Position numbers and translations under genes: made by a program. This document shows, piece by piece, positions 9,501-63,779 of a stretch of DNA of 64,000 nucleotides (its first letter is position 1; every line of letters starts with the position of its first letter). This stretch comes from Laetmonice hystrix (taxonomy: Eukaryota), in the NCBI GenBank assembly GCA_965235115.1, contig OZ249443.1, positions 20,150,001 through 20,214,000 on the forward strand. The letters run 5' to 3'. The notes beneath the pieces were generated by a model, which did not search any database, had not been told where the DNA came from, and was given only the letters and a program-made list of their open reading frames with translations.

Positions 9501-10084
9501 TGTGTTATCGTTTACAGATTAGAGAAATGTTCCATATCACCTGAGTTGTGTCATCAAAAACTACGCCGTTAGAGTTAGCAGACGACCTGTCTGGACTAAG
9601 CTGCCTGTGGAACAAAACATGAGATTATCACGACAATGAATCCCACACTCATATCCTGTCCAGACGTACTGCCACGTCAACGACACGTCAACTGCTGCTG
9701 GACAATTTCCGGTGATGTTTCCTGTCTACGGAACCTCTGAATGGAGCTCGGCCGACACGATACTCTGGCTGGCTTCTCTACAATCCGTTCTCTTTCATCC
9801 CCCGTCTGCCTGGTTCTGCTATATCCCTGTAATCTTCACTGTCTTGCAATAACATACTTAGTGGCACGCGCCTGTGTTTTTTTAATTTTTTTTGTTTTAA
9901 TCATCATACTACTGTAGCCTCCTGGAGATTCATCATGAATCTGTACTGTGCCGATTTACATTCCAGCTACTTCGTCCTGTTTTATTAGTATAGCGCGACT
10001 GTCCTCTTTCACCGTAACATTGGCACTGCGCTACTTTATGATAGATCTGCTGTAAAGATCTACATTCCCTTGTTTCCTGACCGA

Positions 10085-10730
10085 ACAGTTTTTGTCCTGG
10101 TTTAGGATAAACTTATATTCTCTCGTTTCCTTACATAGTTGTTTTGTTCTGGTTTAGTATAGGCCTACATTCTCTCGTTTCCTTTACACCGTTGTTTTGT
10201 CCTGGTTTAGTATAGACCTACATGTATATTCTCTCGTTTCCTTTACACCGTTGTTTTGTCCTGGTCTAGTATAGACCTATATTCTCTTGTTTCCTTTACA
10301 CCGTTGTTTTGTCCTGGTTTAGTATAGACCTATATTCTCTTGTTTCCTTACACCGTTGTTTTGTGCTGGTTTAGTATAGACCTACATTCTCTCGTTTCCT
10401 TTACACCGTTGTTTTGTCCTGGTTTAGTATAGACCTATATTCTCTTGTTTCCTTTACACCGTTGTTTTGTCCTGGTTTAGTATAGACCTATATTCTCTTG
10501 TTTCCTTACACCGTTGTTTTGTCCTGGTTTAGTATAGACCTATATTCTCTTGTTTCCTTTACACCGTTGTTTTGTCCTGGTTTAGTATAGGCCTACATTC
10601 TCTCGTTTCCTTTACACCGTTGTTTTGTCCTGGTGTTGTATAGACCTTTTCTCTTGTTTCCTCACATAGTTGTTTTGTCCTGGTTTAGTATGCTAGTATA
10701 CACCTACATTCTCCTGTTTTTGTCCTGGTT
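10085..10730. repeat. Minisatellite, ~52-53-bp unit, ~11 copies
   Basis: Unit TTCTCTCGTTTCCTTTACACCGTTGTTTTGTCCTGGTTTAGTATAGACCTA(C/T)A repeated head-to-tail. Confidence 0.9.
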
Positions 10731-16700: not shown

Positions 16701-16976
16701 ACTGGTGTGATTACTCCAACCTGTAATGATGCGGTAACGGTCAAACAGTGGGCCGTAATCATGTAAGGTTCACAAGACCGAACCAATCTCATGAGGATCC
16801 AACCAATCTCAGGGTAACTGAACCAAATCCAATCCTAGGATAACCAATCTCAGAGAATCCAACCTATAACTGGGATTTAACTGGGTTTGCGCAAACACAC
16901 CTGAACTATCCCAGGTGGGTTGACATCCTTCCAAAGATCATTTTTCTCACGGGCCCTGCCCACTGTTTTACTGCGT

Positions 16977-18024
16977 TAACGTACGGTGGCAGTAAAGACA
17001 CGACTACGTTTTGTGGGGAGCAATAACTGTAGATTCTTTACTTTGCATCTGTACACAGTGCCAGTACAACCCGGAGGATAAGGCACACGAACACAACCAA
17101 AATATACAGTATTGGCTATAACTGATGTATGCTTGATGATGTGTGGTTCACGTCTGGTTTGCAGGACTTGACCACACGTACGTTCCTCAATGGTAGAGCA
17201 GAATGAATGAAGTCTTTGAGATACACTGCCCACTGTTACTGAATACTGAATGTTCACGCACTAACTCACCAGGCAGAGTTTTTGGGATGTGGTGAAGCTG
17301 AGTGATGTCTTTGGCGTCGGACAAGCGTAATGGCGTTGTCGAGCAGGTAGAGTTCCTTAGGATGTGTGAAGTTGTTTCCAGCAGGCAAAGATGTGTGTCT
17401 TACCAAATTGTAGGATGAGTATATATAGGGAGGACCAATGTCAAACTGACCAATGATATATAACATAAAAATGCTGGTCATCTATTGGCTACACCATCAC
17501 AGGGCAGGCCTGTTTGAGGATTGTCCATTTGTTGTTAAAGCCAAGTGAGTTGGCACTGGCAGACAGTCTAATGAGCAGTGATTACTGAGGCCGACATCCT
17601 GGCACTAGTGAGCTGCTTCACAGAGGTGGGAAACAATAGGTGAGAAAACACCTGTATTACGGGTTCCCTGTGATGAGCGACTCTGCCCCTATGACTGTAC
17701 TGCCTTCATTAATAAAACAACCTCCCAAACGAAAGCTGGGGAAAACCATCAATGGAGAACATATGTCACCCAAGAGATTACATTGTTTGTAAACCTAAGA
17801 TGCTGGTAGCAGACAATGAATACAAACTGAACATCTGAGAACGGTGGTTAAATCCTTAATGCACCACGACATGGTTGGTAAATGTCTATAATGAACATCT
17901 AATCTTTCTGGGTGTAAATCAAACGTATACAATTTACAACTAAACACAAGAATTGTCTCTGACATAAGTTGTCTGTTCATTATTTTGAGCAAGAGTGGCC
18001 CATAGTGAAACTAGGGGTACGATA
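16977..18024 (-). repeat. 3' LTR (1048 bp)
   Basis: Apparently identical to 25516-26563 (three identical ORF-track translations at constant offset); 8-bp imperfect terminal inverted repeat TAACGTAC...GTACGATA. Confidence 0.95.
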
Positions 18025-18885: not shown

Positions 18886-19620
18886 TTAATCAGGGTGGGA
18901 CAGTACACCTGTTAACATGGGGACGCACTGTTTGCAGGGTTTGAGGCATACCTGGACGTAAAAGCTGAATTGGGCGTGGCGGACAAATAGTAGGGCTTGA
19001 AATTTTTGTTTTAGAATGGATTTTAGTTTTAGGGCTTGCCAGGGGGAAATGGACAATTGTTCTGGCAATGGGACATCTTGGTTAGACAAAGTGTTGGTGA
19101 TGGACAGATCCTGCCAGTTAATATATAGGACGGGGCGTATGGAACCTTTGACATGGACGTCTTTTAGCCATAGGGATGCTTGGAAGTGGAAGTTTCTAGG
19201 GCAAATGGGGACATCTACGATTGGGACTTTCACGCACTTAGGACCGGTGGACAATTCAATAAAAATGGTCGAGTGGTGTTTGTTGCGCTTGTAGGCTTTG
19301 TACAGCAGGAGACCAACTGTGACCATTATGGCGAAGGTCACCATGTACGATGCAATATCATGCGTACATATGTCTACGGGGGAAGGGGTGGGGATGGTGG
19401 GTTGGGCTGTCGATGGGAATAGGTGGATTACTTTGTCTACAGCAAGTGCATGGGCTGCTTTTGTTTGTTTGAGTATTGACACATAAGCAATTAGTGTGCG
19501 GTATTTCCAGAAGAGAACTACTGTTCCTAGTAAGGATATACCACTAACGATGATGGGGATGAGGGTCCACCACCATGTAGTAGATGACCAGAGGATTGAG
19601 CCCGGATCAGCCCCCAATGC
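18886..19620 (-). pseudogene. env: env C-terminal fragment (TM anchor, second TM, ~115-aa extra domain)
   Basis: ORF 18886-19662: WWWTLIPIIVSGISLLGTVVLFWKY, second hydrophobic helix IASYMVTFAIMVTVGLLLY, then a beta-rich-looking domain. Located just before PPT/3' LTR in element orientation. 5' boundary (inversion junction) is approximate. Confidence 0.7.
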
Positions 19621-19895
19621 CCCAAAATCTGCCACAGGATAGCCAAAACAACTCCCAAACAACTACTACAGACGGTCACCCCACAGATGACCTACCGGAC
19701 AATGCAGAGGTATCGGATATCATCAAGTCAGGAAAGGTGCAGAACAGAAAGGCATATAAAGTGAGACTGAAGGACAAAAGAGGTCCCATCTGGCTATATG
19801 CTGAGGATGTACCTGACGCCATGAAAAGAACATTTCACATACAAAGGACACAAGCAGGAAAGAAAAGAAAGAGAAAGAAAGTTACACGTCAGTAA
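19620..19895 (+). pseudogene. Inverted integrase C-terminus (chromodomain-like fold plus basic tail)
   Basis: EVSDIIKSGKVQNRKAYKVRLKDKRGPIWLYAEDVP..FHIQRTQAGKKRKRKK resembles chromodomain-like ends of gypsy integrases and is followed by an A-rich spacer and env, the expected pol-env order. Confidence 0.6.
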
Positions 19896-19911
19896 AACAA
19901 AAACAAGAACA

Positions 19912-19942
<31 letters not shown>

Positions 19943-19965
19943 TCGAAAACAGCAAACAAACAATC

Positions 19966-19996
<31 letters not shown>

Positions 19997-20355
19997 GGAG
20001 GAGAAAGTGGCTTCCAACAAACCCCCCACCCCCCAACCACCCCTAAAATTCATGTGCTTTATATGAAGTGCTTTAGTGCCAGTTGTTTCTACAAAACTTG
20101 TGCCAGACCGTTAACAGTGTCACCAACAGAGCATCACTCGACGAGTCGCTTCTTTTACTTACAACTTGAGTCATACGGTTAAGTTTTAGAGTACAGTATA
20201 CCTGTCAGAGATCACTGTAAAGAGGATATTGCTTCGGTTGCCGACGGCGTGCTAACCCCAAAATCTGTGTCCAGAAAGGGCAGTGGAGCTTCATGTGCAC
20301 ACACCCTCATATCATCCATTATTCGTGCCTCATTCATTAAGGCTCTGCTCCCTAT

Positions 20356-21534
20356 ATGTTCACAGATTGCTGGGAATTAGCTACTCCCCGGGGCGTGCGC
20401 GCAACAAGCAGTCGGAGCTCTGTACTCGGCACAGTGCGGACAGGACTGATCATAGTACTCATTTACACCGTCATGATCTCAACCAAGATTCAAGCTATGG
20501 ATGTGGTTCAGCGACCCAACTACGGAATATTATTCCAACCCGCTGGCCGTATGCAAGCCACCTACAACAAGTGGTCGCATACTTTCCAGTTAACCATGCC
20601 CCAACGTCTGCAAGTTAACAGTACCAGCGTATCATGTCCTGAAACCACGTCCCATCATCCATGTTCAGCTTTAGTAAAGGCTCTTCAACGTGCCCATGCG
20701 ATACGCATGCGGACAGCCTCAACACTAAACATTTTACGCGACCAGATTATAGCACTCGTACCAAAGAGCAGAGCAAAACTCTCTCTCTCACGGTCCAAGC
20801 GAGCGTTACTACCAATCATCGGTGAACTGGCCCATTCCTTATTCGGAACAGCAACAGAACAAGAAGTAGAAACACTGGCAAGACATATCATAGCACTAGA
20901 AAAGCACTCCGACAAACAAGCGGCCGCTTTTGCACGTCACTCTGAGGAAATGTCTTCCTTCATGGCTGCAACAACAGAGCACTTTGAAAGTCTCACGGCT
21001 GAAATTCTAGAGAATCATCAAGCCCTAAATGATGTCTCTTTTACCCTACGTAGCTTTGGCCTGGCCACACAAGCGGCAATACAATTATCAATTGCTTTGG
21101 CAGAGGATGCTCACTTAACAGGTCAACTACAGCAACAATTCTCACTCATGTTCCAAGGCGTCCATGAGCTGACTCAGCATCGTCTCTCGCCATCACTACT
21201 ACCACTACAAATTCTCGAACACACCCTGGACAATATCAAGAACTTGCTAGCAACCAGCCACCCAGAATTTAAAATCGCTATCAGAGCCAACCACATTTAT
21301 GATTCCAAGGATTTCTTTTGGGCTTTCAGAAACAACTCGATTTTCATTACAATCAATATTCCACTTCTAACTCAGGCTGTGGTGCTGAACGTATACAAGG
21401 TCATCTCAGTACCAGTACCACTGCACACAAATTCTGAGCAAGTGACTCAACTTCTGGACACACCACGATACATAGCCTTCAGCTCAGATGGACTATATTA
21501 TACCATCCCAGACCCAGACAAATGGTTATCATAA
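20356..21534 (+). pseudogene. env: Inverted env N-terminal fragment, baculovirus-F/errantivirus-type class I fusogen (392 aa, truncated)
   Basis: Signal peptide LIIVLIYTVMISTKIQA, furin site RSKR (20791-20802), fusion-peptide-like ALLPIIGELAHSLFGTATEQE, heptad-rich helices. Ends at the junction with pol; no TM. Confidence 0.85.
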
Positions 21535-21540
21535 TTATCG

Positions 21541-24061
21541 TAGGGAGGGTTCCTTTGCTTAGGTATGTGTAAATGTGCCTGAAGTCTGGACACTCCTGTT
21601 GTGCGGCTGAAATAGTTGACCTGTCCATGCCAACAGGTGTCACTGCCGTTATTTCAGCGTTTGGTTGGGTAACTGTTCCTTGGTATTCAAATGATGCCTG
21701 CCACTGTTCATATAGGTTAGGCTGTTGTGGAATGGGTGTGCAAGTGAGAACTTCTCCATCAAGGTGTTCCATTATGGCACTCTTGGGATGTGGTGTGCTT
21801 TGGCTGTCATTGTATGGTCGACGTGAGAGGCCATCTGCATTAGTGTTAGCCACTCCTTTCTTGTGCTCGATGGTGAATGTATAGCCTTGTAGATTTAGTG
21901 CCCATCTGCATAACCTTGGGTTTTTGTGTTTAAAGTTCATTACATGTTTTAGTGCTTGGTGATCGGTCACGAGTTTAAAGGGTCGATGTGAGAGGTATAC
22001 GTGGAAGGCTTCTATGGCTTCTACGGCTGCCAAGCACTCCAGTTCAGATATTCCACGTTTGTATTCTGCACCGCGTAGGGATCGTCCTCCATAGCATACC
22101 GGATGTTCCTTTCCTGTACTATCTATCTGACTTAAGACATAGCCAATGGCACTACTGGACGCGTCAGATGTTACTATGAAGTCTTGGTTGAGGTCCGGAT
22201 AAGCTAAGACGGGGGGGTTTGTGAGACTTTCCTTGAGTTTGCTGAATGCCAGGGAACATTCTTCTGTCCAGACGAATTCAATATCTTTTTTAAGCAAAGC
22301 TGTTAATGGTGCCGTAGTTGTACTGTATCCGTCAATGAAGCGCCTGTAGTAATTAGCAATTCCCAGAAATGATCTCACTTGTTTTGGTGTTTTGGGGACT
22401 GGAAAGTCCGTTACTGCTTTGATCTTCTCAGGGTTGGGCAGGATTCCATTAGATGACAGGATATGACCCAGATAAGTGACTGCATTTGTACCAAAGCGAC
22501 ATTTTGTGGGTTTGGCTTTAAGGTTTGCCTTCCTTAACCTATCGAAGACTTGCTCCAAATCTTTCATGTGTTGGTCCACATCTGAGCTGAACACAATGAT
22601 GTCGTCGACAAATCCTGCCATAATTTTGTATACGAGTCCCCTGAAGACTTCAGAGACGAGTTTTTGGAAAGAGGTGCTAGCATTTCGCAAACCAAATGGC
22701 ATACGGTTCCAGGCATACTCTCCCTGTTGTGTCACGAATGCGGTTTTGTCTTTGCTGTCGGGATGGACTGGTATTTGCCAAAAAGCACCGGCCAGGTCTA
22801 TGACTGTATAGATTTTGGCTTTTCTTTGACCAATCGCATCCCATATGTCTTCCAAGCGGGGCATGGGGAAGCTCATTGGTTTGGTTACTGCATTGACATG
22901 TCTGTAGTCGACCGCAAAACGATAGGATCCATCACGTTTTTTCACTAACACGACGGGCGATGTCCACTCTGAAGTTGAGGGTTCAATGAAGCCACAAGCA
23001 AGCAATTCCTCAACTTGTTTATCTATTTCTTCTCTTACCTTAGGCGAGGCCCTGTAGAATCGCTTTGCTTTGGGAGGTGCATCACCTGTGTCTATTGTGT
23101 GGGTCATGAGTTGTGTGCATCCTATGTCAGAGACGTCTGTTGCAAAAACATCAGAGTGTTTAAGTAGGAATTGTCTGAGTCTATTCTTGTCATAGTCAGA
23201 CAACTCAGGATTTTCAACGTCAGGATCAAATGCAGCATTGCCTTGTGTGTTACGTTGTGGCTGATGTTGAACGTCTGTTTCATCACTTTCTTCGGCTATA
23301 GTCATGACCTGAGCTGGGGACATGCGACGTGCAATTCCAATGGTTGACATACCTGGTATGCGGACGGATTTACTTGTATTATTAATGATACGACATATTA
23401 TCGGTTTGTTGTCTTCCACTTCAACTAATGTTGGAATTACAGAGAATTGTGACCCTTTAAGTGTGCTCTTTCCTGTTGGTTCAATCAAGAACGGGTCCGT
23501 ACATGTTGTTGATAATTTGACCCGTACTGCTGTTACTGAACGTGCTGGTATCTTTTCAGGTTTTGTGGTTCTGACCAAAGTCGCCTTATTTGAGAGTGGG
23601 CCTAGAGGTAATGATATGCCTCTGTCCAGTGTTAATGTCCCATTCTCAAGGTTAACAATGGCTTTGTGTGCGGTCATGAAATCCATGCCTATTATTAGGG
23701 CGTGGTGACCTTGGAGCACGTGGAAGGGGTGACTAAATTCTGTGGTTCCTGCCTTGAATTTCAGGAGTATGCAGTCTAGCACCTTGTGTGTTTCTCCTCC
23801 CACACCTCTGACCGAGTTGTATGTGGGTCTCACTTTTGTGTGATTTCTCATAGATATTTTGTTGATCAGATGTGCAGAAATACATGAAATTACTGCACCT
23901 GTGTCTATGAGGGCTTGAACTGATAGTTGGCCTATCTGTACAGGTAGTGCCTGGTCATACTCTAGGTTGGTAGTAGACATTAGGTCAGCTGTTGGACCTT
24001 CTGTTTCAAGACTTTGCCTGTCCTCACATGTCATTTGACATGAAGAAACAGGCGCGAATTC
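21541..24061 (-). CDS. pol: pol: aspartic protease, reverse transcriptase, RNase H; integrase truncated
   Basis: ORF 21479-24034: LIDTGA (PR); YRFAVDYR, MPFGL, FVDD (RT); TSDAS, ELECLA, TDHQAL, NADGLSR (RH). Breaks after QQECPDFRHIYTYLSKGTLP with no HHCC or DDE motifs. Frame stays open up to the gag TAG. Confidence 0.92.
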
Positions 24062-25360
24062 CTATGCGGAATATTGGTGGTTGGGTGGGATTTGGGCTCG
24101 GTTTTTGTAGGACTTCTGGTGGTGGGGTCGGGGATGGTAATTCTGCTGAGGGTGGGATTGGAAATTCTGCTGAGGGTGGGGTTGGAAATTCTGCTGAGGG
24201 TGGGGTTGGAAATTCTGCTGAGGGTGGGGTTGGAAATTCTGCTGAGGGTGGGGTTGGTAATTATATTGTGGTTTGCCACGACACATAAAGTACCAATGGT
24301 TTTCCTTTCCACAAGATTGACAATTGTGACCCCTGGCTAAACAATCCTTACCTCGTCTGCACTCGATTTGTCCACAATTGGCGCATATGTCTGTCTGTTG
24401 ATGCTGTTGAGTATAGTTGTGTTGGTTGCGTCTGGGTTGTCTCTGTTGGCTTGGACCTTGGTGACGTGGTTGGCCCTGGTAGCTGTCTTCAGGTTGTGAC
24501 CATCGTCCCGTGGTGGGTGACGTCATCTGGGCTGTTGATGGGACGGCTGAGTTGACTTGAGCTGCCCTAGTCAAAGATGCCACCTCAGTTCTCAGCTGAT
24601 CAATTGATGTGAGGACTTCTTGGTTGAGCGTTGTGGTGGCTGAAGCAACTGGGATGGCTACTTGCAGTGCCGCGCAATCAATTACTTGTTTCGGCGTTCT
24701 GGGATTCGCTTGCCGAAAAAATGGCAAGAATTCCGGCCTGAGTCCAGATTCTATGATCTGGACAATGTTAGTATCATCCAGATCCAAACCTTTTGCAGCC
24801 AGCACTACTTCATTTACATAATCTGGCACTGATTGCCCTAATTTTTGTTGGCTGGTAGCCAGTTGTCTAAACTTTAGTCCTCTGTTGGGGCGTTTTGGAC
24901 CATTTATCCAATATGCTTCAAATGCTGCTGACAGACGTGTGAAGCTCTCCTGGTCGGCCTTCGGCAACGTCCGGTACCAGGTTTCCCCGTCACCGGTAAA
25001 CATAAAACGTACCGCTGCTGCTGCTTGTCTGTCATTTTTGTTATTCCATGTTGTCATGGCTGTGACGTCATCCAGCCAGTCTTGGGGGTTGATGACTCCA
25101 TCAAAGCTTTTAGGCATCATCGCCATCATCATGGTGTCGTCCCACTCAGTGTCGGCTTCTTCCTGTGCTATTTCGTCCTCTTCCTCGTGGACGACTGGTG
25201 CCGGGTCGGGCACAGGGTGGGGCGGTACTATTGTTCTTTTAGTACCCTCTATTTGGGGTATGCCGTTGGTTGCAGCCTGAGAGCGTGTTGCTGCTGCTGG
25301 TCCTAGTGGTAATTTGGCTGACACTGCCCTTTGTATGGGATTATTGCATGGGGCTGACAT
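24062..25360 (-). CDS. gag: gag (432 aa) with CCHC zinc knuckle
   Basis: FDG...QDWL..V..MT.W / A.TWY retrotransposon-gag motifs; CANCGQIEC...CQSCGKENHWYFMC knuckle; five PHPQQNFQ-type repeats encoded by a 24-bp tandem at ~24131-24258. Confidence 0.9.
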   Translation of the reverse strand: MSAPCNNPIQRAVSAKLPLGPAAATRSQAATNGIPQIEGTKRTIVPPHPVPDPAPVVHEEEDEIAQEEADTEWDDTMMMAMMPKSFDGVINPQDWLDDVTAMTTWNNKNDRQAAAAVRFMFTGDGETWYRTLPKADQESFTRLSAAFEAYWINGPKRPNRGLKFRQLATSQQKLGQSVPDYVNEVVLAAKGLDLDDTNIVQIIESGLRPEFLPFFRQANPRTPKQVIDCAALQVAIPVASATTTLNQEVLTSIDQLRTEVASLTRAAQVNSAVPSTAQMTSPTTGRWSQPEDSYQGQPRHQGPSQQRQPRRNQHNYTQQHQQTDICANCGQIECRRGKDCLARGHNCQSCGKENHWYFMCRGKPQYNYQPHPQQNFQPHPQQNFQPHPQQNFQPHPQQNFQSHPQQNYHPRPHHQKSYKNRAQIPPNHQYSA

Positions 25361-25498
25361 GCCACATTAAAATAACTGAATTTTGATGATTTCGGCACTC
25401 ACACTAACGGTGCACCAACAACTGTCCACAGATACAAAACTGCTCACCGAGAATCAGTTGCCACTGCTTTCCCAACCAGAGTTAGGCAAAACGAGACA

Positions 25499-25515: not shown

Positions 25516-26563
25516 TAACGTACGGTGGCAGTAAAGACACGACTACGTTTTGTGGGGAGCAATAACTGTAGATTCTTTACTTTGCATCTGTACACAGTGC
25601 CAGTACAACCCGGAGGATAAGGCACACGAACACAACCAAAATATACAGTATTGGCTATAACTGATGTATGCTTGATGATGTGTGGTTCACGTCTGGTTTG
25701 CAGGACTTGACCACACGTACGTTCCTCAATGGTAGAGCAGAATGAATGAAGTCTTTGAGATACACTGCCCACTGTTACTGAATACTGAATGTTCACGCAC
25801 TAACTCACCAGGCAGAGTTTTTGGGATGTGGTGAAGCTGAGTGATGTCTTTGGCGTCGGACAAGCGTAATGGCGTTGTCGAGCAGGTAGAGTTCCTTAGG
25901 ATGTGTGAAGTTGTTTCCAGCAGGCAAAGATGTGTGTCTTACCAAATTGTAGGATGAGTATATATAGGGAGGACCAATGTCAAACTGACCAATGATATAT
26001 AACATAAAAATGCTGGTCATCTATTGGCTACACCATCACAGGGCAGGCCTGTTTGAGGATTGTCCATTTGTTGTTAAAGCCAAGTGAGTTGGCACTGGCA
26101 GACAGTCTAATGAGCAGTGATTACTGAGGCCGACATCCTGGCACTAGTGAGCTGCTTCACAGAGGTGGGAAACAATAGGTGAGAAAACACCTGTATTACG
26201 GGTTCCCTGTGATGAGCGACTCTGCCCCTATGACTGTACTGCCTTCATTAATAAAACAACCTCCCAAACGAAAGCTGGGGAAAACCATCAATGGAGAACA
26301 TATGTCACCCAAGAGATTACATTGTTTGTAAACCTAAGATGCTGGTAGCAGACAATGAATACAAACTGAACATCTGAGAACGGTGGTTAAATCCTTAATG
26401 CACCACGACATGGTTGGTAAATGTCTATAATGAACATCTAATCTTTCTGGGTGTAAATCAAACGTATACAATTTACAACTAAACACAAGAATTGTCTCTG
26501 ACATAAGTTGTCTGTTCATTATTTTGAGCAAGAGTGGCCCATAGTGAAACTAGGGGTACGATA
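25516..26563 (-). repeat. 5' LTR (1048 bp)
   Basis: Direct repeat of 16977-18024, followed by the GCGT TSD. Confidence 0.95.
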
Positions 26564-28618
26564 GCGTTATCAAAGGCCCTGTCTGTACTTTTTCTTTCAA
26601 TAAGGATAAAGGATTGTTCAAAGTGATAAGTTTCTTTCTCTCATCCTCACTAATACCTTCTTGGACTCGGTTCCCCCTGGAAAGATTACGTTATTACATT
26701 GTATTCTCGCCTGGCTGGCTGAAATACTGCTGACAATGACATGACATAAACCTCCTAATTCTCTCCGCTAGCGGGTGAACTCCCCCCCCTCCCCCTCCCT
26801 TCCACCCCCCCCCCCCCACCCCACCACCCACCCCTACTGACAGAGCCAGCAGACAGACTAGCTAACAACATCATTACCTGGACAACTCCCAGTCCACAAT
26901 TAGCTTCGTTTGATGCCAGACTCCAGGCAGAGGATTTGATCTTTGCCACCAGTCTGTGAACACTTGTAAATTATACGCCGCCGTGTGCGCCGACTGGGGT
27001 AAAGGGAGCGACTAGGGCGTGAACAAGCTGCCCAAGTAGGAAGGGTTCTTACCCCTATTCCTGACGGATATCAGTGACAGGTTCTACCAAATCTGAAGAA
27101 CATAAGTAGGTAACAGACAACACTGTCCGTCACAAATGTTCCATGTCGCCTTCAATTGGGACTCAAGGACACCGGAACATGGGCTACCATGTTCTTTAAC
27201 CCTCCCAGAGAACATCACGGCTTGTCACACAGCAAGGTCCTTCGGATGGCACTTGAGGAAAATGATTCTTTGACCTTTCAAAAAAAGTTCCTGTTGCACT
27301 CAGGCTTCGCTTGGCTCTGCTGAGATCAACAAATGGATCTGGCACGGCCGGGCACATTAAATTAACAGATAGAAAAAAAATAATACTTTTAACAAGAGGA
27401 TAGGAACATTCTGTCTTCCGTACGATTTTTCCCGAAGTAATTGCCACGGAACATTTGCAGGCTTTGGTGTATTACATGTTGTAAAAACATTACACTGGTG
27501 CTACAAAATCCGAAATATGACACTGACACTTGTGTACATCCTGATCGACCCTGACATTTTGTCACCACGCAATCCAAGTAAGCCAGGACAGGTTGCCGTC
27601 GCAGAGACGGACTGGATCAGTAGCAAGCAAACATTCCACTACTTGGAAAAATATCTACAGGCAAAAATCTAAAACCTTCAAAAACATTTCTACTTTCTGC
27701 TTATTTTTTTATTTGGGGTGGGGGTGGAGACTGATGTGTTTGTAACTTTCCTGCTCAACAACCCTGGTGTACCACCATCCAGCACATCAAATAATAACAG
27801 TGATGTTGGAAGCATTTTTTTATTTTTTATTTATTATTATTATTATTTATTTGGGGGGGGGGGGCAACTAGGCCATGTTCCAAGAGCATTTTAGATTGGG
27901 GGGGGGGGTGGGGGCAGACTATGTTTTGCCCCAGTTTCTTTGCCTTTGGTGGTGGGGCCATGGCCCATGGACCCCCCCCCCCCCCCCCTTTCCGACATCA
28001 CTGAATAATTGAACAATTGTTACGCTCTTTGGTGCAGCCCCCCAGCCTTAAGAACATGACGTCATCACTAATGATGAGACGGGTCCTTCTTTAAGCACTA
28101 CTCCCTGATCCAAACATGTTGCACCTAACAAACAATGTATCCTAACTCAGTGGAATCTTACCAGACACTGCTGCCCTCTCGTGGCAACATTTGATGTAGC
28201 AAATCGATAAGATTCCCCTGGTGGTAAATCATCGAACCACTACTACAGAGACTATTGTGAAGCACTCTCAAAATAACAGCTTGGGATTTCGAAACAAAAC
28301 ACAATAATATCTCTCATAGCTGCTAAAATGAACAACGGCTATAACAACGGCTAATATAAAAATAAAGTTACATTCAGGAATAGCATCTACTGTGCTGCCC
28401 CCTGTCGGTGGCTGTGGTGACGTGTTGTCCAAAGGTTGAGGAAGTAATTAAAATAACATTAATTCCCGAGAGGTAACCTTGGTTGACTGGGCCTCATATA
28501 GACAATATCACAGTCCCTCAGGGCGGCACAGTATTAGGATTTCTGAGGGTTGAACAAGTCTGACAGGATCACAGAGTAATGCCCCGAGCAGTGCAATACC
28601 AAAAAGACTTGTGCCTAC

Positions 28619-35774: not shown

Positions 35775-38700
35775 GTAGGCCTACCGTTTGCTTGTATAGG
35801 CTACACTACAACAATATACAGCTTGTAGGCCCTATACAACAGTAGTATAGGGACGCCTCAGGTTTCATGTTTCCAAGCCTTTATTGTCCAGGAGACAGGC
35901 CTTACGTTTCGTCTATCATCTACTCCCATCAAGCTGTGTCCCCTAGATCTACAGACCATCTGTAAGCATCCGACAACGTTGTCAGGTCGTCCCAATGGCT
36001 GTTTGCCTTAAAGGTCTAATTAACAATGGCAAATGCCGTTGTACACCTTTCCTATATCAAATATCCCATCCCCAAGTAAAACAAAAATTACAGAGATGTT
36101 GCAGGCAACCGCCAGGGTACTGTGGCTCCGACTGCACTGCTATACCTTCCGGCTACCGATGGAATCACCACGTATACCTGGCCGGGATGGCAGGCACCTG
36201 TGGCTCTTAGGCGGGAGAGGGGTTAATGCAATGATAATTGCGAAAAATGGCTACATTTTTGATACGTCAAATTGAAACTACGCCCCCCAAAATTATGATT
36301 CTTAGGCCAGATGTATAACTGTCAAACGTATCGGTCCGGGCCCTTACGTTCGCTACATAGACTCTATATATGGTTGTGATGTGTACACTTCCCATTTGAG
36401 TATCTTCTCCAGATTTTAACATTAGATGCTTCTCGCCTGTAACTTTCATTGCCAGTAGCTCACTGTCGTGTTTGCATGGCTAATAGGCCAGCCGGTAAGA
36501 TGTAGGGACTTCTCACTCTACTGATTGGCCTCCCACAGTGCTTGGCCCCACAGTGTACTGTTTGGCCTCACTGTACTGTTTGGCCTCACTGTAGTGTTCG
36601 CTTGGGTGCTAAGCCAGCCAGTATACCTTGTAGAGATTCTCCCTGTACTGTTTGGCCTCCCTGTACCGTTTGCTTGTATACAAGAGTAGCCAGTACTATA
36701 GGGACGCCTCATGTTTCATGTTTCCATGCCTTTATTGTCCAGGAGGTAGAGTCTATAGGCCATACGTTTCGTCTATCATTTACTCCCATCTAATTTGTGT
36801 CCCCTACAGACCATATCTAAGCGTCTGACAACGTTGTCAGGTAGTCCCAATGGCTGTTTGCCTTAAAGGTCTAATTAACAATGGCAAATGCCGTTGTACG
36901 CCTTTCCTATATCAGATATCCCATCCCTAAGTAAAAAGAAAAGGCTACAGAGATGTTGAAGGCAACCGCCAGGGTACAGTGGCTCCGACTGCACTGCTAC
37001 CTTCCGGCTACCGGTTGAATCACAACGTATACCTGGCCGGGCTGGCAGGCACCTGTGGCTCTTAGGCGGGAGAGAGGTTAATGCAATGATAATTGCGAAA
37101 AATGGCTACATTTTTGATACGTCAAATTGAAACTACGCCCCCAAAATTATGATTCATAGGCCAGATGTATAACTCTCAAACGTATACATCTCGTACGTTC
37201 GCTACAGATAAATGCTTTGTGATATGTATAATTCCTATTTGAGTATCTTCTCTAAAATTTAACATTAGATGCTCCTCGCCTGTACCTTTCATTTCCACTA
37301 CCTCGCTGTACTGTTTGCATGGATACTATAATGGGCCATCGGGTAAGATGTAGGGACTTCTCACTCTACTGGTTGGCCTCCCACAGTGCTTGGCCCCACA
37401 GTGTACTGTTTGGCCCCACTGTACTGTTTGGCCTCACTGTAGTGTTCACTTGGGTGCTAAGCCAGCCAGTATACCTTGTAGAGATTCCTCCCTGTACTGT
37501 TTGGCCTCCCTGTACCGTTTGCTTGTATACAAGAGTAGCCAGTACTATAGGGACGCCTCATGTTTCATGTTTCCATGCCTTTATTGTCCAGGAGGTAGAG
37601 TCTATAGGCCATACGTTTCGTCTATCATTTACTCCCATCTAATTTGTGTCCCCTACAGACCATATCTAAGCGTCTGACAACGTTGTCAGGTAGTCCCAAT
37701 GGCTGTTTGCCTTAAAGGTCTAATTAACAATGGCAAATGCCGTTGTACGCCTTTCCTATATCAGATATCCCATCCCTAAGTAAAAAGAAAAGGCTACAGA
37801 GATGTTGAAGGCAACCGCCAGGGTACAGTGGCTCCGACTGCACTGCTACCTTCCGGCTACCGGTTGAATCACAACGTATACCTGGCCGGGCTGGCAGGCA
37901 CCTGTGGCTCTTAGGCGGGAGAGAGGTTAATGCAATGATAATTGCGAAAAATGGCTACATTTTTGATACGTCAAATTGAAACTACGCTCCCAAAATTATG
38001 ACTCTTAGGCCAGATGTATAACTCTCAAACGTATACATCTCGTACGTTCGCTACAGATAAATGGTTTGTGATATGTATAATTCCTATTTCAGTATCTTCT
38101 CTAAAATTTAACATTAGATGCTCCTCGCCTGTACCTTTCATTTCCACTACCTCGCTGTACTGTTTGCATGGATACTATAATGGGCCATCGGGTAAGATGT
38201 AGGGACTTCTCACTCTACTGGTTGGCCTCCCACACTGCTTAGCCTCACAGTACACTGTTTGGCCTCACTGTACTGTTTGGCCTCACTGTAGTGTTTGCTT
38301 GGGTACTAGGCCAGCCAGTATGGATTCCTCACTGTACTGTTTGGCCTCCCTGTACTCTTTGGCCTCACTATACAACATTAGCCAGTAGTATAGGGACGCC
38401 TCCTGTTTCATGTTTCCATGCCTTTATTATCTAGGAGGTAGGCCATACGTTTCGTCTATCATTTACTCCCATCTAATTTGTGTCCCCTACAGACCATCTG
38501 TAAGCGTCCGACAACGTTGTCAGGTAGTCCCAATGGCTGTTTGCCTTAAAGGTCTAATTAACAATGGCAAATGCCGTTGTACGCCTTTCCTATATCAGCT
38601 ATCCCATCCCCAAGTAAAAAAAAGATTACAGAGACGTTGCAGGCAACCGCCAGGGTACTGTGGCTCCGACTGCACTGCTACCTTCCGGCTACCGGTGGAA

Positions 38701-39030
38701 TCACCACGTAAACATGGCCGGGCTGGTCTGGCTCTTAAGCGAGAGACAGGTTAATGTAATGATAAGCGCCTGTACCTTTTATTTCAACTACAGGGCCGTA
38801 GCCTGCTGGGGTGAGAGGGCAGGGGGCAGCTGCCCTCCCCCCTGGGATTTCCAGTTTTTGTGTGTTTTTTAACCCACACCCCGGGCCCGCTCGCCCGCGC
38901 AATGACGCGCTATCACATGGCAGGTCTACTGCCCCCTACGTATTTGGGCCAGGCTACAGCCCTGCACTACCTCACTGTACTGTTTGCATGGCAACTAGGC
39001 CAGCCGGTAAAATGTAGGGACTCCTCACTG
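35775..39030. repeat. Satellite-like tandem repeat, ~850-bp unit x ~3.5-4
   Basis: GGACGCC anchor at ~35851, 36702, 37551 and 38394; internal CTGTACTGTTTGGCCTC sub-repeats; last unit has an internal deletion and is interrupted by a MITE. Confidence 0.9.
38791..38964. mobile_element. CAGGG-ended MITE inserted in the last satellite unit
   Basis: CAGGGCCGTAGCCTG ... CAGGCTACAGCCCTG; flanks AACTA / CACTA match the parent repeat sequence CCACTACCTC. Confidence 0.6.
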
Positions 39031-59734: not shown

Positions 59735-61647
59735 TCACACCTCAAAGGAGTGCTCCCCCGAGGGGGGCTTGTACAAGTCATGCAGCAAGAGCGTGCTCTT
59801 GGTCTGCAGCGAGAGGTTGAGGGCCTCGATTTTGGTGAGGAGGTCGTTTCCTAGCAGTTTCCTCACCAGGAGCCGAGCCAGGTCCTTTAACCTGGGCGGG
59901 GCTGAGGTAACACACTCTAAGAGTTTTATCATCAGCTTTTGCTTCTCCTCGGGGATGTTTTCCACCAGTTTTTTATCGTCTTGCCAGTTGAGGACCGGGG
60001 CGAGCTGACAGCGAAGGTTGATGAGAAGTTCGGCAATGTCCCAGCTACCAGAGTGAAGAGCGTAGAGGACGGGGGCCTGAACTTCTGTGTGGATCTCATC
60101 CTCAGAGGACTCCTTACACACCAGCCCCGCCATGTTGATGTCACAGTTGGCTTCCAGTAAGTGCCGCACGATTTTCATGGAACCAAGGCAGATGGCGATG
60201 AGCAGCGGCGTGCTAGCCGGCACTATGTCGCTGTTATGAGTTAGTTTAGTCGACTGGACATCGGGAACCGCCTTGGACGCCAAAAGGGTTTGCACAACGG
60301 GCGGTGCGCTCGCCCAAACGGCAACATGCAGGGCGGTCCAACCCTCCGGGGTGCTCTGGTTCACATCGCTGCCGCGTTCTATTAAGTACTGCACAATGTC
60401 TAGATACCCCCCTGAGCAAGCCACCATTAGCGGGGTGGCTCCTAGCTTGGCGCGGACTCCAATCCCACAACCTTTCTCTGTGAGCGTCTGGCAAAGGTTG
60501 AGGGACCCAACGCAGGCGGCCCAGTGAAGGGCTGTCAGTCCCTCGTTGTCCTTGGCCATGATGTCAGCGCCCTTGGTGAGTAGCAGTTGTGCCACCGCCT
60601 CGTCATACTCACAGGCGGCCAGGAAGGGCGTCCGACCCTGCGCGTCCTTGCCCTCCAGCTCGGCCCCCAGCTCATCCAGCAGGAGCTTCACGTTGTCCCT
60701 CCTCCCGTGTTTGATGGCCTTGTGGAGCGCAAGGTTGAGCTTCTCCTGCTTGTCTTCCTCCGTGTACTTGGAGAGCGTCGGGTGTTTCTCCAAGATGAGT
60801 GCTAGAATCTGGGGGCGGCCCTCTTGGGCCAAATACATGAACGGGCTGTCTTCGTATCCATGACTGCCGTACTGGCCGACGAAAGGGTCGACCTGCAGTT
60901 CGTCCAGGAGGACGCTAACCTCCTCGCGGTCGGCCGTATTCCAGTCTTCGTTTTCCGCCTGGATGTCGAGACTGTAGCAGAACTTGATAAACTCCACGTC
61001 CTTGGTGGCCAACGCCAGGCTCATCTTGACGATCTCTGTCGTACAGCCAGCGTCACGTAGCGTCTGCATGATCTCCTGCGGAGAGCACATAAACAGGTGA
61101 CGTCACAAGTACAACTTTACTCCGCTTCAGAGACCACAGAAAGAGGCACAGAAAGTATTTCCAAACAACCAAATTCAAAATGCAACCACTGTCTTAATGG
61201 TAGCTTTGATGTTTATGGTCGCACACTTCTAAGGTCTAGAAAAGATGGCAAACATGAAAAAAAGTATCGATATTTTGAAAAGTAAACCCTGTAGAACTGC
61301 ATAGCTGTATTTAACATAAATTCGGACAGATTAGGAAGGAATGCCCATCTATTTTTTTTAAATAATTTTGGGCTCCTCTCAGAAAATGTAACTATTGGGA
61401 CTGCTCGATGGATACACTTTATATGCCTCTTTATTGGACTGGCAGGCTAAAACCTCTTCTTTATATCAAATCAGTTGTGAGAGGTGTGGGACACCTTGCG
61501 GCTATCTTTCTCCAGATAAGGTTACAATAACAGACCTCTAGGCGGGGTCCGGGAACTTACCGTGTGGCGGCCTCGGAATGCGTGAACGAACGGAGTGTCA
61601 CCGTTCTCATCCTCAGTGTCGATGTCAGCACCGGCCGACAGCAGCAC
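59735..61647 (-). CDS. Ankyrin-repeat and SOCS-box protein (ASB-like), last two exons
   Basis: Exon 61647-61561 (VLLSAGADIDTEDENGDTPFVHAFRGRHT, 87 bp) splices in phase 0 to 61075-59735. Multiple G.TPL/TALH ankyrin repeats and C-terminal SOCS box PPRLKDLARLLVRKLLG...KIEALNLSLQTKSTLL. Upstream exons lie beyond the window. Confidence 0.88.
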
Positions 61648-61666
61648 CTGGGGAAGGGAGAGAAAA

Positions 61667-63243
61667 CGGTCAGGTCTGCTCCTCCTAAAGTCTGTGTCCC
61701 CGGCAGGTCTGCTCCTCCCAAACAAAGTCAGTGGCCCCGACGGGTCTGCTCCCAAACAAAGTCAGTGACCCCGGCGGGTCTACTCCCAAACAAAGTCAGT
61801 GTCCCCGGCAGGTCTGCTCCTCCCAAAACAAAGTCAGTGACCCCGGCGGGTCTGCTCCCAAACAAAGTCAGTGACCCCGGCGGGTCTGCTCCTCCCAAAC
61901 AAAGTCAGTGACCCCGGCGGGTCTGCTCCTCCCAAATAAAGTCAGTGACCCCGGCAGGTCTACTCCCAAACAATGTCAGTGACCCCGGCAGGTCTACTCC
62001 CAAACAATGTCAGTGACCCCGGCGGGTCTGCTCCTCCCAAATAAAGTCAGTGACCCCGGCAGGTCTACTCCCAAACAAAGTCAGTGACCCCGGCAGGTCT
62101 ACTCCCAAACAATGTCAGTGACCCCGGCAGGTCTACTCCCAAACAATGTCAGTGACCCCGGCGGGTCTGCTCCTCCCAAACAAAGTCAGTGTACCCGGCG
62201 GGTCTGCTCCTCCCAAACAAAGTCAGTGACCCCGGGAGGTCTACTCCCAAACAAAGTCAGTGACCCCGGCAGGTCTACTCCCAAACAAAGTCAGTGACTC
62301 CGGCGGGTCTACTCCCAAACAAAGTCAGTGACCCGGGCAGGTCTACTCCCAAACAAAGTCAGTGACCCGGGCAGGTCTACTCCCAAACAAAGTCAGTGAC
62401 CCCGGCGGGTCTGCTCCTCCCAAAGTCTGTGACCCCGGCAGGTCTACTCCCAAACAAAGTCAGTGACCCGGGCAGGTCTACTCCCAAACAAAGTCAGTGA
62501 CCCGGGCAGGTCTACTCCCAAACAAAGTCAGTGACCCCGGCAGGTCTACTCCCAAACAAAGTCAGTGACCCGGGCAGGTCTACTCCCAAACAAAGTCAGT
62601 GACCCGGGCAGGTCTACTCCCAAACAAAGTCAGTGACCCCGGCAGGTCTACTCCCAAACAAAGTCAGCGACCCCGGCGGGTCTACTCCCAAACAAAGTCA
62701 GTGTCCCCGGCGGGTCTACTCCCAAACAAAGTCAGTGACCCGGGCAGGTCTACTCCCAAACAAAGTCAGTGACCCGGGCAGGTCTACTCCCAAACAAAGT
62801 CAGTGACCCGGGCAGGTCTACTCCCAAACAAAGTCAGTGACCCCGGCAGGTCTACTCCCAAACAAAGTCAGCGACCCCGGCGGGTCTACTCCCAAACAAA
62901 GTCAGTGTCCCCGGCGGGTCTACTCCCAAACAAAGTCAGTGACCCGGGCAGGTCTACTCCCAAACAAAGTCAGTGACCCGGGCAGGTCTACTGCCAAACA
63001 AAGTCAGTGACCCCGGCAGGTCTACTGCCAAACAAAGTCAGTAAGCCCGGCGGGTCTCCTCCTCCCAAACAAAGTCAGTGACACCGGCGGGTCTGCTCCT
63101 CCCAAACAAAGTCAGTGACACCGGCGGGTCTACTCCTCCCAAACAAAGTCAGTGACCCCGGCGGGTCTACTCCTCCCAAACAAAGTCAGTGACCCCGGCG
63201 GGTCTGCTCCTCCCAAACAAAGTCAGTAAGCCCGGCGGGTCTC
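61667..63243. repeat. Intronic minisatellite, 34-37-bp unit, ~45 copies
   Basis: GTGACCCCGGCAGGTCTACTCCCAAACAAAGTCA head-to-tail, with variants and higher-order blocks. Confidence 0.95.
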
Positions 63244-63779
63244 GACACCACGGAGACCTATCCCACTGCGGTCAACCAGAACTGCAATCACTCAAACATA
63301 AAGAGTTCATGCGTTCATAGAGTCGTTATTTATGAAAGTCAATAAATCTTTGAGTTTGATCTTACTGCTGCTGTACGATGAATTTACAGTGGACACGTCC
63401 GGTGGGGCGCCGCGGCCCCTCAAGTCTCTCCACAAACTGTCTCAAACAGACCTCAGACGTATATAGAACAGTCCTACCACCAACGCCAGCCACCCTAGAC
63501 CGGGTCAGACCGTAGGAGCCTCAGACTGGCGGACTCCCCATGTTTCTTACTCAGTTACGGTCGATAACTAGGTCTTTGAGAAGGGTAAGTGACCGTAAAT
63601 ACATTCCCAAAGCGATGTAGTCCGGAAACGTTTGGCCAGGGTTAGGAGGTCCTTTGACGACGGTTTATCAATATTTCATACACTCTACCGACGGTGCCGG
63701 TAGCGGACCACTGACCGTATAGCCTAACAGGAGAATCTGCTGGGAATAGATGTCTTTAAATAGGTCTGTAATGGGTCAA

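Follow-up and report, generated by a model that had tools for sequence, protein, structure and literature searches.

The element and the tail of its env frame

The stretch of DNA analysed here, called the window, comprises 64,000 nucleotides of the Laetmonice hystrix genome (assembly GCA_965235115.1, contig OZ249443.1, positions 20,150,001 to 20,214,000) and houses, on its minus strand, a 9.6-kb long terminal repeat (LTR) element, whose env tail is the subject of this report. Pfam finds protease, reverse transcriptase (RT), RNase H and a Baculo_F env in the window, and the element is therefore a Ty3/gypsy element with an F-type env. Its third frame is a homologue of baculovirus-type F with a furin-type site and a transmembrane segment (TM) (Baculo_F E 1e-12). 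Besides the F-type fusogen, env encodes a conserved second membrane module; we consider it reasonably likely that this module is freed by signal peptidase, has a Borna-type fold and acts as a membrane-anchored matrix and budding protein.

The element is young, has its env at the 3' end and is flanked by a 4-bp target duplication, GCGT, at 16973-16976 and 26564-26567 (Table 1). The LTR termini (window 16977 and 26563) are TA...TA, not the usual TG...CA, alongside this duplication. In the window copy, an inversion severs the tail from the F ectodomain and the flanks have lost about 0.6 kb of env and about 1.3 kb of integrase, as judged against L005, a copy on contig C10 that is 98-99.7% identical. 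The inverted 5' half of env (frame 20341-21534) retains a Baculo_F match (E 3e-11) and the furin-type site. Inversion and deletions sit in an element whose LTRs remain 100% identical; the inversion was not seen in the public contigs compared, which come from one sample, possibly the source sample of the assembly. The L005 env frame is open for 843 codons, running from F through to the same tail, and a public contig from that sample likewise joins ectodomain to tail in un-inverted order; for this reason the tail is part of env, confirming its assignment in the first-pass annotation of this DNA.

The tail features share a single minus-strand frame, which stays open between 19662 and the stop codon at 18888-18886; their sub-coordinates were derived manually from the translated sequence. 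The anchor TM, the KYR motif, the hydrophobic stretch, the AxA motif, the S/T/P segment, the second TM, the basic stop and the domain all lie where the first-pass annotation had put them; the domain, which it had taken to be about 115 residues long, is present and measures about 108 residues, followed by a 20-residue tail containing Cys. The Baculo_F match in L005 extends to the end of TM1. The predicted internal signal peptide consists of KYR (19506-19498), the hydrophobic stretch (19497-19471) and a polar region ending in A-H-A (19455-19447), with the predicted cut between 19447 and 19446 and the -1 residue 19 residues past the first K. The second protein that would be released, of about 186 aa, lies within env and carries a folded domain predicted to be cytosolic.

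Table 1. Features of the element and of its env tail (window positions)
Feature	Position	Strand	Basis or remark
3' LTR	16977..18024	-	ends TA...TA; LTR pair 100% identical over 1049 nt
5' LTR	25516..26563	-	LTR comparison
gag-position frame, separated from the in-frame pol by a single stop	24062..25366	-	open reading frame list, Pfam
pol (protease, RT, RNase H); integrase core absent in window copy	21543..24061	-	Pfam, copy comparison
Inverted segment: integrase C-terminus (frame 19584-19895) and env 5' half (frame 20341-21534)	about 19601-21532	+	copy comparison
TM1, membrane anchor of the F fusion protein	19507..19563	-	best 19-residue Kyte-Doolittle mean 2.26
Predicted signal peptide within env: n-region (basic, KYR), h-region (hydrophobic) and c-region (polar, up to A-H-A)	19447..19506	-	alignment, (-3,-1) rule
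S/T/P-rich spacer, 30 aa, predicted lumenal N-terminus of second protein	19357..19446	-	37% S/T/P, few K/R
TM2, anchor of predicted second protein	19300..19356	-	Kyte-Doolittle mean 2.0
Basic stop-transfer segment after TM2	19273..19299	-	K+R fraction 0.26 after TM2 vs 0.02 before
Beta-rich domain, about 108 aa, predicted cytosolic, Borna-M-like matrix fold	18949..19272	-	predicted structure; net charge +5
C-terminal tail, 20 residues, with C-x3-C-x2-C, and stop codon	18886..18948	-	translation

Conservation across families and the predicted internal signal peptide

When the domain was used to query the genome, 40 matches were obtained among 51 candidates, and the layout recurs in six own-genome env frames belonging to five families, at 25-64% identity to L005. 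The polar region ends in A-H-A in the window family and in T-H-A, V-Q-A, V-E-A and T-H-A in the four other families. Beyond this genome, a five-sequence domain profile matched 710 among 1.84 billion cluster representatives, so that the family is large, while no Pfam model matches the domain. The best 150 of these 710, together with P0002 and five own-genome frames, form the set of 156 homologues, which were gathered by the domain itself and hence give no share of F-type envs devoid of it. Named homologues with the domain are molluscan (Mytilus, Argopecten, Pinctada, Mizuhopecten). Among the 93 full-span homologues, having at least 125 residues ahead of the domain, both TMs are present in 91 and TM2 in 92; the F ectodomain was found in all 63 homologues with at least 250 residues upstream of the domain. 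Of 24 further proteins, 19 match a profile of TM2 plus domain, four stop before the TM region and one is distant and unscored. Across 48 envs, moreover, pairs that are more alike in the ectodomain tend also to be more alike in the domain (Spearman 0.40; 0 of 999 permutations). The order signal, F ectodomain, TM1, basic motif, hydrophobic stretch, small-x-small site, spacer, TM2, basic segment and domain is thus conserved in dozens of families.

Between L005 and L007, third codon positions differ by 0.61 and second positions by 0.17 in the domain (0.61 and 0.13, respectively, in the F ectodomain), a codon pattern of purifying selection on the domain. Conserved residues of the domain include C22 (126/143), C33 (135/145) and H108. 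The C-x3-C-x2-C of the window tail (18925-18948) has similar counterparts in 42 of the 156 tails, seven of which also hold a late-budding motif; together with C22, C33 and H108 it may serve zinc binding or acylation. An origin of the whole tail as a piece of captured host sequence, or as a chance frame born of the rearrangement, is scarcely conceivable. The window copy does have its rearrangement just where the stretch begins, but in other copies and families the frame runs on from F without a break, the profile matches and codon pattern given above belong to a widespread and selected domain, and no Pfam family is matched.

A separate observation concerns the L041 family, in which 12 of the 14 copies examined (L017-L021, L023-L028 and L034) share an env deletion of about 1.96 kb that takes out F, both TMs and the signal and stops two or three codons before the domain. 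In all 12 the domain and a YPxL tail are still part of an open frame that has an ATG upstream; env-less copies have possibly kept a soluble matrix, or the arrangement is possibly due to chance.

The segment behind TM1 was examined in 91 aligned homologues, P0104 (marginal) and P0136 (internal deletion) having been left out. A K or R follows TM1 in 97% and a second basic position is occupied in 78%; next come eight hydrophobic columns, then a polar stretch leading to the cleavage positions, where -3 is V/A/T/S/I in 95%, -1 is A/S/G in 92% and -2 is mostly large or charged (A/G/S in 13%). The hydrophobicity over eight residues reaches at least 1.5 in 89 of the 91. An alignment-free form of the (-3,-1) rule, applied 17-24 residues past the first basic residue and written after the alignment had been seen, is satisfied by 73/91, compared with averages of 32.4 and 38.8 and maxima of 48 and 54 in shuffles (2000 rounds). 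The commonest site distance is 19 residues (45/91), which the window frame shares. Small, large-polar and small residues at -3, -2 and -1, at a fixed distance from an h-region, are the signature of signal peptidase. As to sidedness, basic residues follow both TM1 and TM2 in the homologues and acidic ones precede TM2. According to the positive-inside rule, basic patches face the cytosol; both patches being cytosolic, the chain has to cross the membrane in between, and the h-region supplies this crossing. On these sequence features, the post-TM1 stretch is very probably an internal signal peptide that loops back into the endoplasmic reticulum (ER) membrane as a hairpin, where a cut on the lumenal side frees the second protein as a type I membrane protein. 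The first-pass annotation had named two outcomes that would speak against its proposal: loss of TM2 and the AxA site in relatives, and a captured host fragment. Both TMs and the site were found in most relatives at the frequencies given above; the domain travels with the F ectodomain, and its best structural matches, presented below, are viral matrix proteins.

Env could instead stay uncut, as a single protein that spans the membrane three times and keeps the matrix-like domain covalently joined to the fusogen. This would suit the 18 homologues that fail the cleavage rule as well as P0027 and P0072, in which the hydrophobic stretch is shortened or altered, and cleavage is itself a prediction; a signal peptidase signature at a fixed distance would, however, have no evident purpose, and we regard this arrangement as improbable. 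We give very little credence to a topology in which the short hydrophobic stretch fails to cross, so that TM2 runs from inside to outside and the domain becomes an outer attachment domain. The shortness of the h-region, sequons slightly above expectation in the domain and the conserved C22 and C33 would fit it; against it stand the acidic residues before and basic residues after TM2, the cytosolic matrix proteins as best fold matches and the late motifs, which function in the cytosol only (PMC8402826, text in part).

Predicted matrix fold and late-budding motifs

The structure prediction and fold search that the first-pass annotation had proposed for the terminal domain ranked viral matrix (M) proteins first, with two aligners and in two libraries. 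The best matches are Borna disease virus M, the C-terminal domain of paramyxovirus and pneumovirus M and the N-terminal domain of filovirus VP40; Borna M consists of one domain of comparable size, and the alignment covers most of its length. From the predicted structure, the domain, which is predicted to be cytosolic, is probably homologous to Mononegavirales M, whose mode of working, along with its fold, it may share. The top matches in BFVD are glycoproteins of Aliusviridae (Jingchuvirales), of 1040-1230 aa, which may hold the same F-plus-matrix layout. Weaker BFVD matches are small uncharacterised proteins (128-136 aa) of lispi/arli-like viruses, Hubei rhabdo-like virus 3 and Wuhan sharpbelly bornavirus, which may be un-annotated matrix proteins of their viruses.

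Late-budding motifs were sought behind the domain. A [LMIV]YPxL motif occurs in 34 of the 156 tails (0.2 expected; 1000 shuffles gave no more than 3), or in 34 of the 111 tails of at least 15 residues; P[TS]AP occurs in six tails (0.3 expected) and PPxY in five (1.2 expected, not above the shuffle maximum). In all, 38 of the 156 relatives hold a late motif of any kind, mostly a few residues from the C-terminus. The remainder of the same proteins (65,756 residues) contains [LMIV]YPxL three times, P[TS]AP never and PPxY five times. These motifs are exchangeable recruiters of the endosomal sorting complexes required for transport (ESCRT) in Gag and matrix proteins (PMC8402826, text in part). On the ectodomain tree their distribution is scattered (12/48; 8 changes vs 10.8 in shuffles), and therefore the late motif either is ancient with frequent losses or originated repeatedly. 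The tails of the window family lack a late-domain motif and have C-x3-C-x2-C instead. As a side observation, P0190, a distant F-type protein of 851 aa with the two-TM layout by eye, which the domain profile did not score, holds PSAP, YPAL and PPPY in its last 30 residues.

Taken together, the predicted Borna-M-like fold and the late motifs in relatives lend support to the first-pass guess of a matrix, budding or assembly role. Several results weigh against this reading of the second module. The Z and TM-scores against matrix proteins are low, with an identity of 4-15%, and no M family or chain matched the domain by sequence or profile at lax thresholds; M families fail to match one another by sequence as well (PMC3887258). 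Lying behind a TM within the env frame, unlike a soluble M with its own gene, the domain is not a typical member. To these are added the 18 of 91 homologues that miss the (-3,-1) rule and the sequons, which lie below expectation in the spacer and slightly above it in the domain. The second protein might be released with a domain that is a common twisted beta-sandwich doing another job, such as trafficking, chaperoning of Env, host modulation or sORF2/FAST-like cell-to-cell transfer. The low scores and missing sequence link to M, the lack of late motifs in most tails, that of the window included, and the fact that Ty3/gypsy elements are known to pass from cell to cell by means of small type I proteins (PMC11952523, text in part) would agree with this. 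M-type proteins nevertheless rank first by both aligners in both libraries, the late motifs, where present, are placed as a budding protein needs them, and sORF2 is a separate open reading frame of 63-107 aa with an N-myristoylation motif (same source), unlike the env module. We therefore hold this alternative unlikely.

Regarding the rest of the element, one of the six own-genome Gag frames (two of them incomplete) has a YPxL-like word, and no Pfam capsid match or canonical late motif was found in the gag-position frame of the window. The gag and pol frames form one frame split by a single stop (window 24061-24064; likewise in L006, L041, L043 and L051), which suggests read-through. The errantivirus order protease-RT-RNase H-integrase is intact in L005. 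The integrase C-terminus (window 19584-19895, plus strand) is chromodomain-like by eye, and a mussel homologue is annotated with a chromodomain; Pfam gives no chromodomain match there. Elsewhere in the window lie tandem arrays at 61600-63300 (34 bp units), 35840-39030 (about 850 bp) and 10008-10698 (53 bp).

Proposed mechanism and comparison with known systems

In the reading of env as fusogen plus matrix module, the N-terminal signal would take Env into the ER and TM1 would halt transfer; the basic motif after TM1 would remain cytosolic and the h-region turn back through the membrane, where signal peptidase would cut after A-H-A on the lumenal side, leaving F with a hairpin tail. Processing of F at the furin-type site would follow. 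The second protein, made 1:1 with F, would consist of a 30-residue outside stub, TM2, the basic stop, the matrix-like domain and the tail. Its likely role is to line the inner face of the budding membrane and bring F and the Gag capsid together there, and in many relatives the C-terminal LYPxL likely recruits ALIX and ESCRT; in the window family the scission signal would come from another source.

To our knowledge, Ty3/gypsy Gag lacks a retrovirus-type matrix domain. If the proposal is true, it would explain for one large clade how enveloped errantiviruses connect capsid and envelope and bud, namely through a borrowed matrix fold, membrane-anchored and present 1:1 with the fusogen; the fold of the Borna, measles and Ebola matrix proteins would extend beyond negative-strand RNA viruses, which would become candidate donors of env, and the location of the un-annotated Aliusviridae matrix would be predicted. 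Carried to its end, this would make the virions of a widespread mollusc-type errantivirus clade chimeric, with a retroelement capsid in a Mononegavirales-type F-plus-matrix envelope derived as an F + M cassette from a negative-strand RNA virus; the matrix would be the membrane-anchored, signal-peptidase-released env product carrying the late domain, and the long glycoprotein of Aliusviridae, a family in which no matrix gene is annotated, would hide the same domain. As a whole, this wider proposal is about as likely to be right as wrong.

The kind of element is known. It is a further member of the F-type errantiviruses from non-insect animals: the 'ancient errantiviruses' with F-type ENV (Chary and Hayashi, PMC13524379, text in part) have the same gag-pol-env arrangement between LTRs, the RT-RNase H-integrase order, a Baculo_F match and a furin-type site, and ENV_F elements are recorded there in molluscs and annelids. 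That analysis covers the ectodomain from signal peptide to TM; in the part of the article available, no second TM is mentioned for F-type ENV and the word 'matrix' is absent from the main text, whereas its figures and data repository could show the tail. The second membrane module is undescribed in the literature searched, and no env-encoded matrix in retroelements was found in it, most subscription journals being outside its coverage. The Env-F of insect endogenous retroviruses of Drosophila (PMC12992720, in part), whose cytoplasmic tail is described, and lokiretrovirus Env (PMC7947760, in part) share with the present env the signal peptide, furin site, fusion peptide and TM; they differ in being described with one TM, and in the portions of text consulted no downstream membrane protein or comparable module is described for them, nor is such a module described for sORF2 (PMC11952523, in part).

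Among negative-strand RNA viruses, Aliusviridae have glycoproteins that are classed in PMC12583693 as long class-I fusion proteins, and for which no matrix domain is described in the available part of that article; the accessible portions of PMC11521997 and bioRxiv 10.1101/2024.11.25.625296 likewise contain nothing on a matrix in jingchuviral glycoproteins.

Envelope polyproteins processed by signal peptidase are known from hepaciviruses (E1-E2), flaviviruses (prM-E-NS1), alphaviruses (E2-6K-E1) and bunyaviruses (Gn-Gc). They share with this env an anchor TM, a basic residue and a second hydrophobic stretch that is the signal for the next protein, but release glycoproteins folded outside, whereas the folded part of the env module is predicted inside. 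The known M proteins are soluble, bind the membrane peripherally and have their own gene. The module resembles many of them in its basic surface and, in some relatives, in its late motifs; it is unlike them in that the predicted fold is tied to a TM, comes from the env frame and would work with the capsid of a retroelement.
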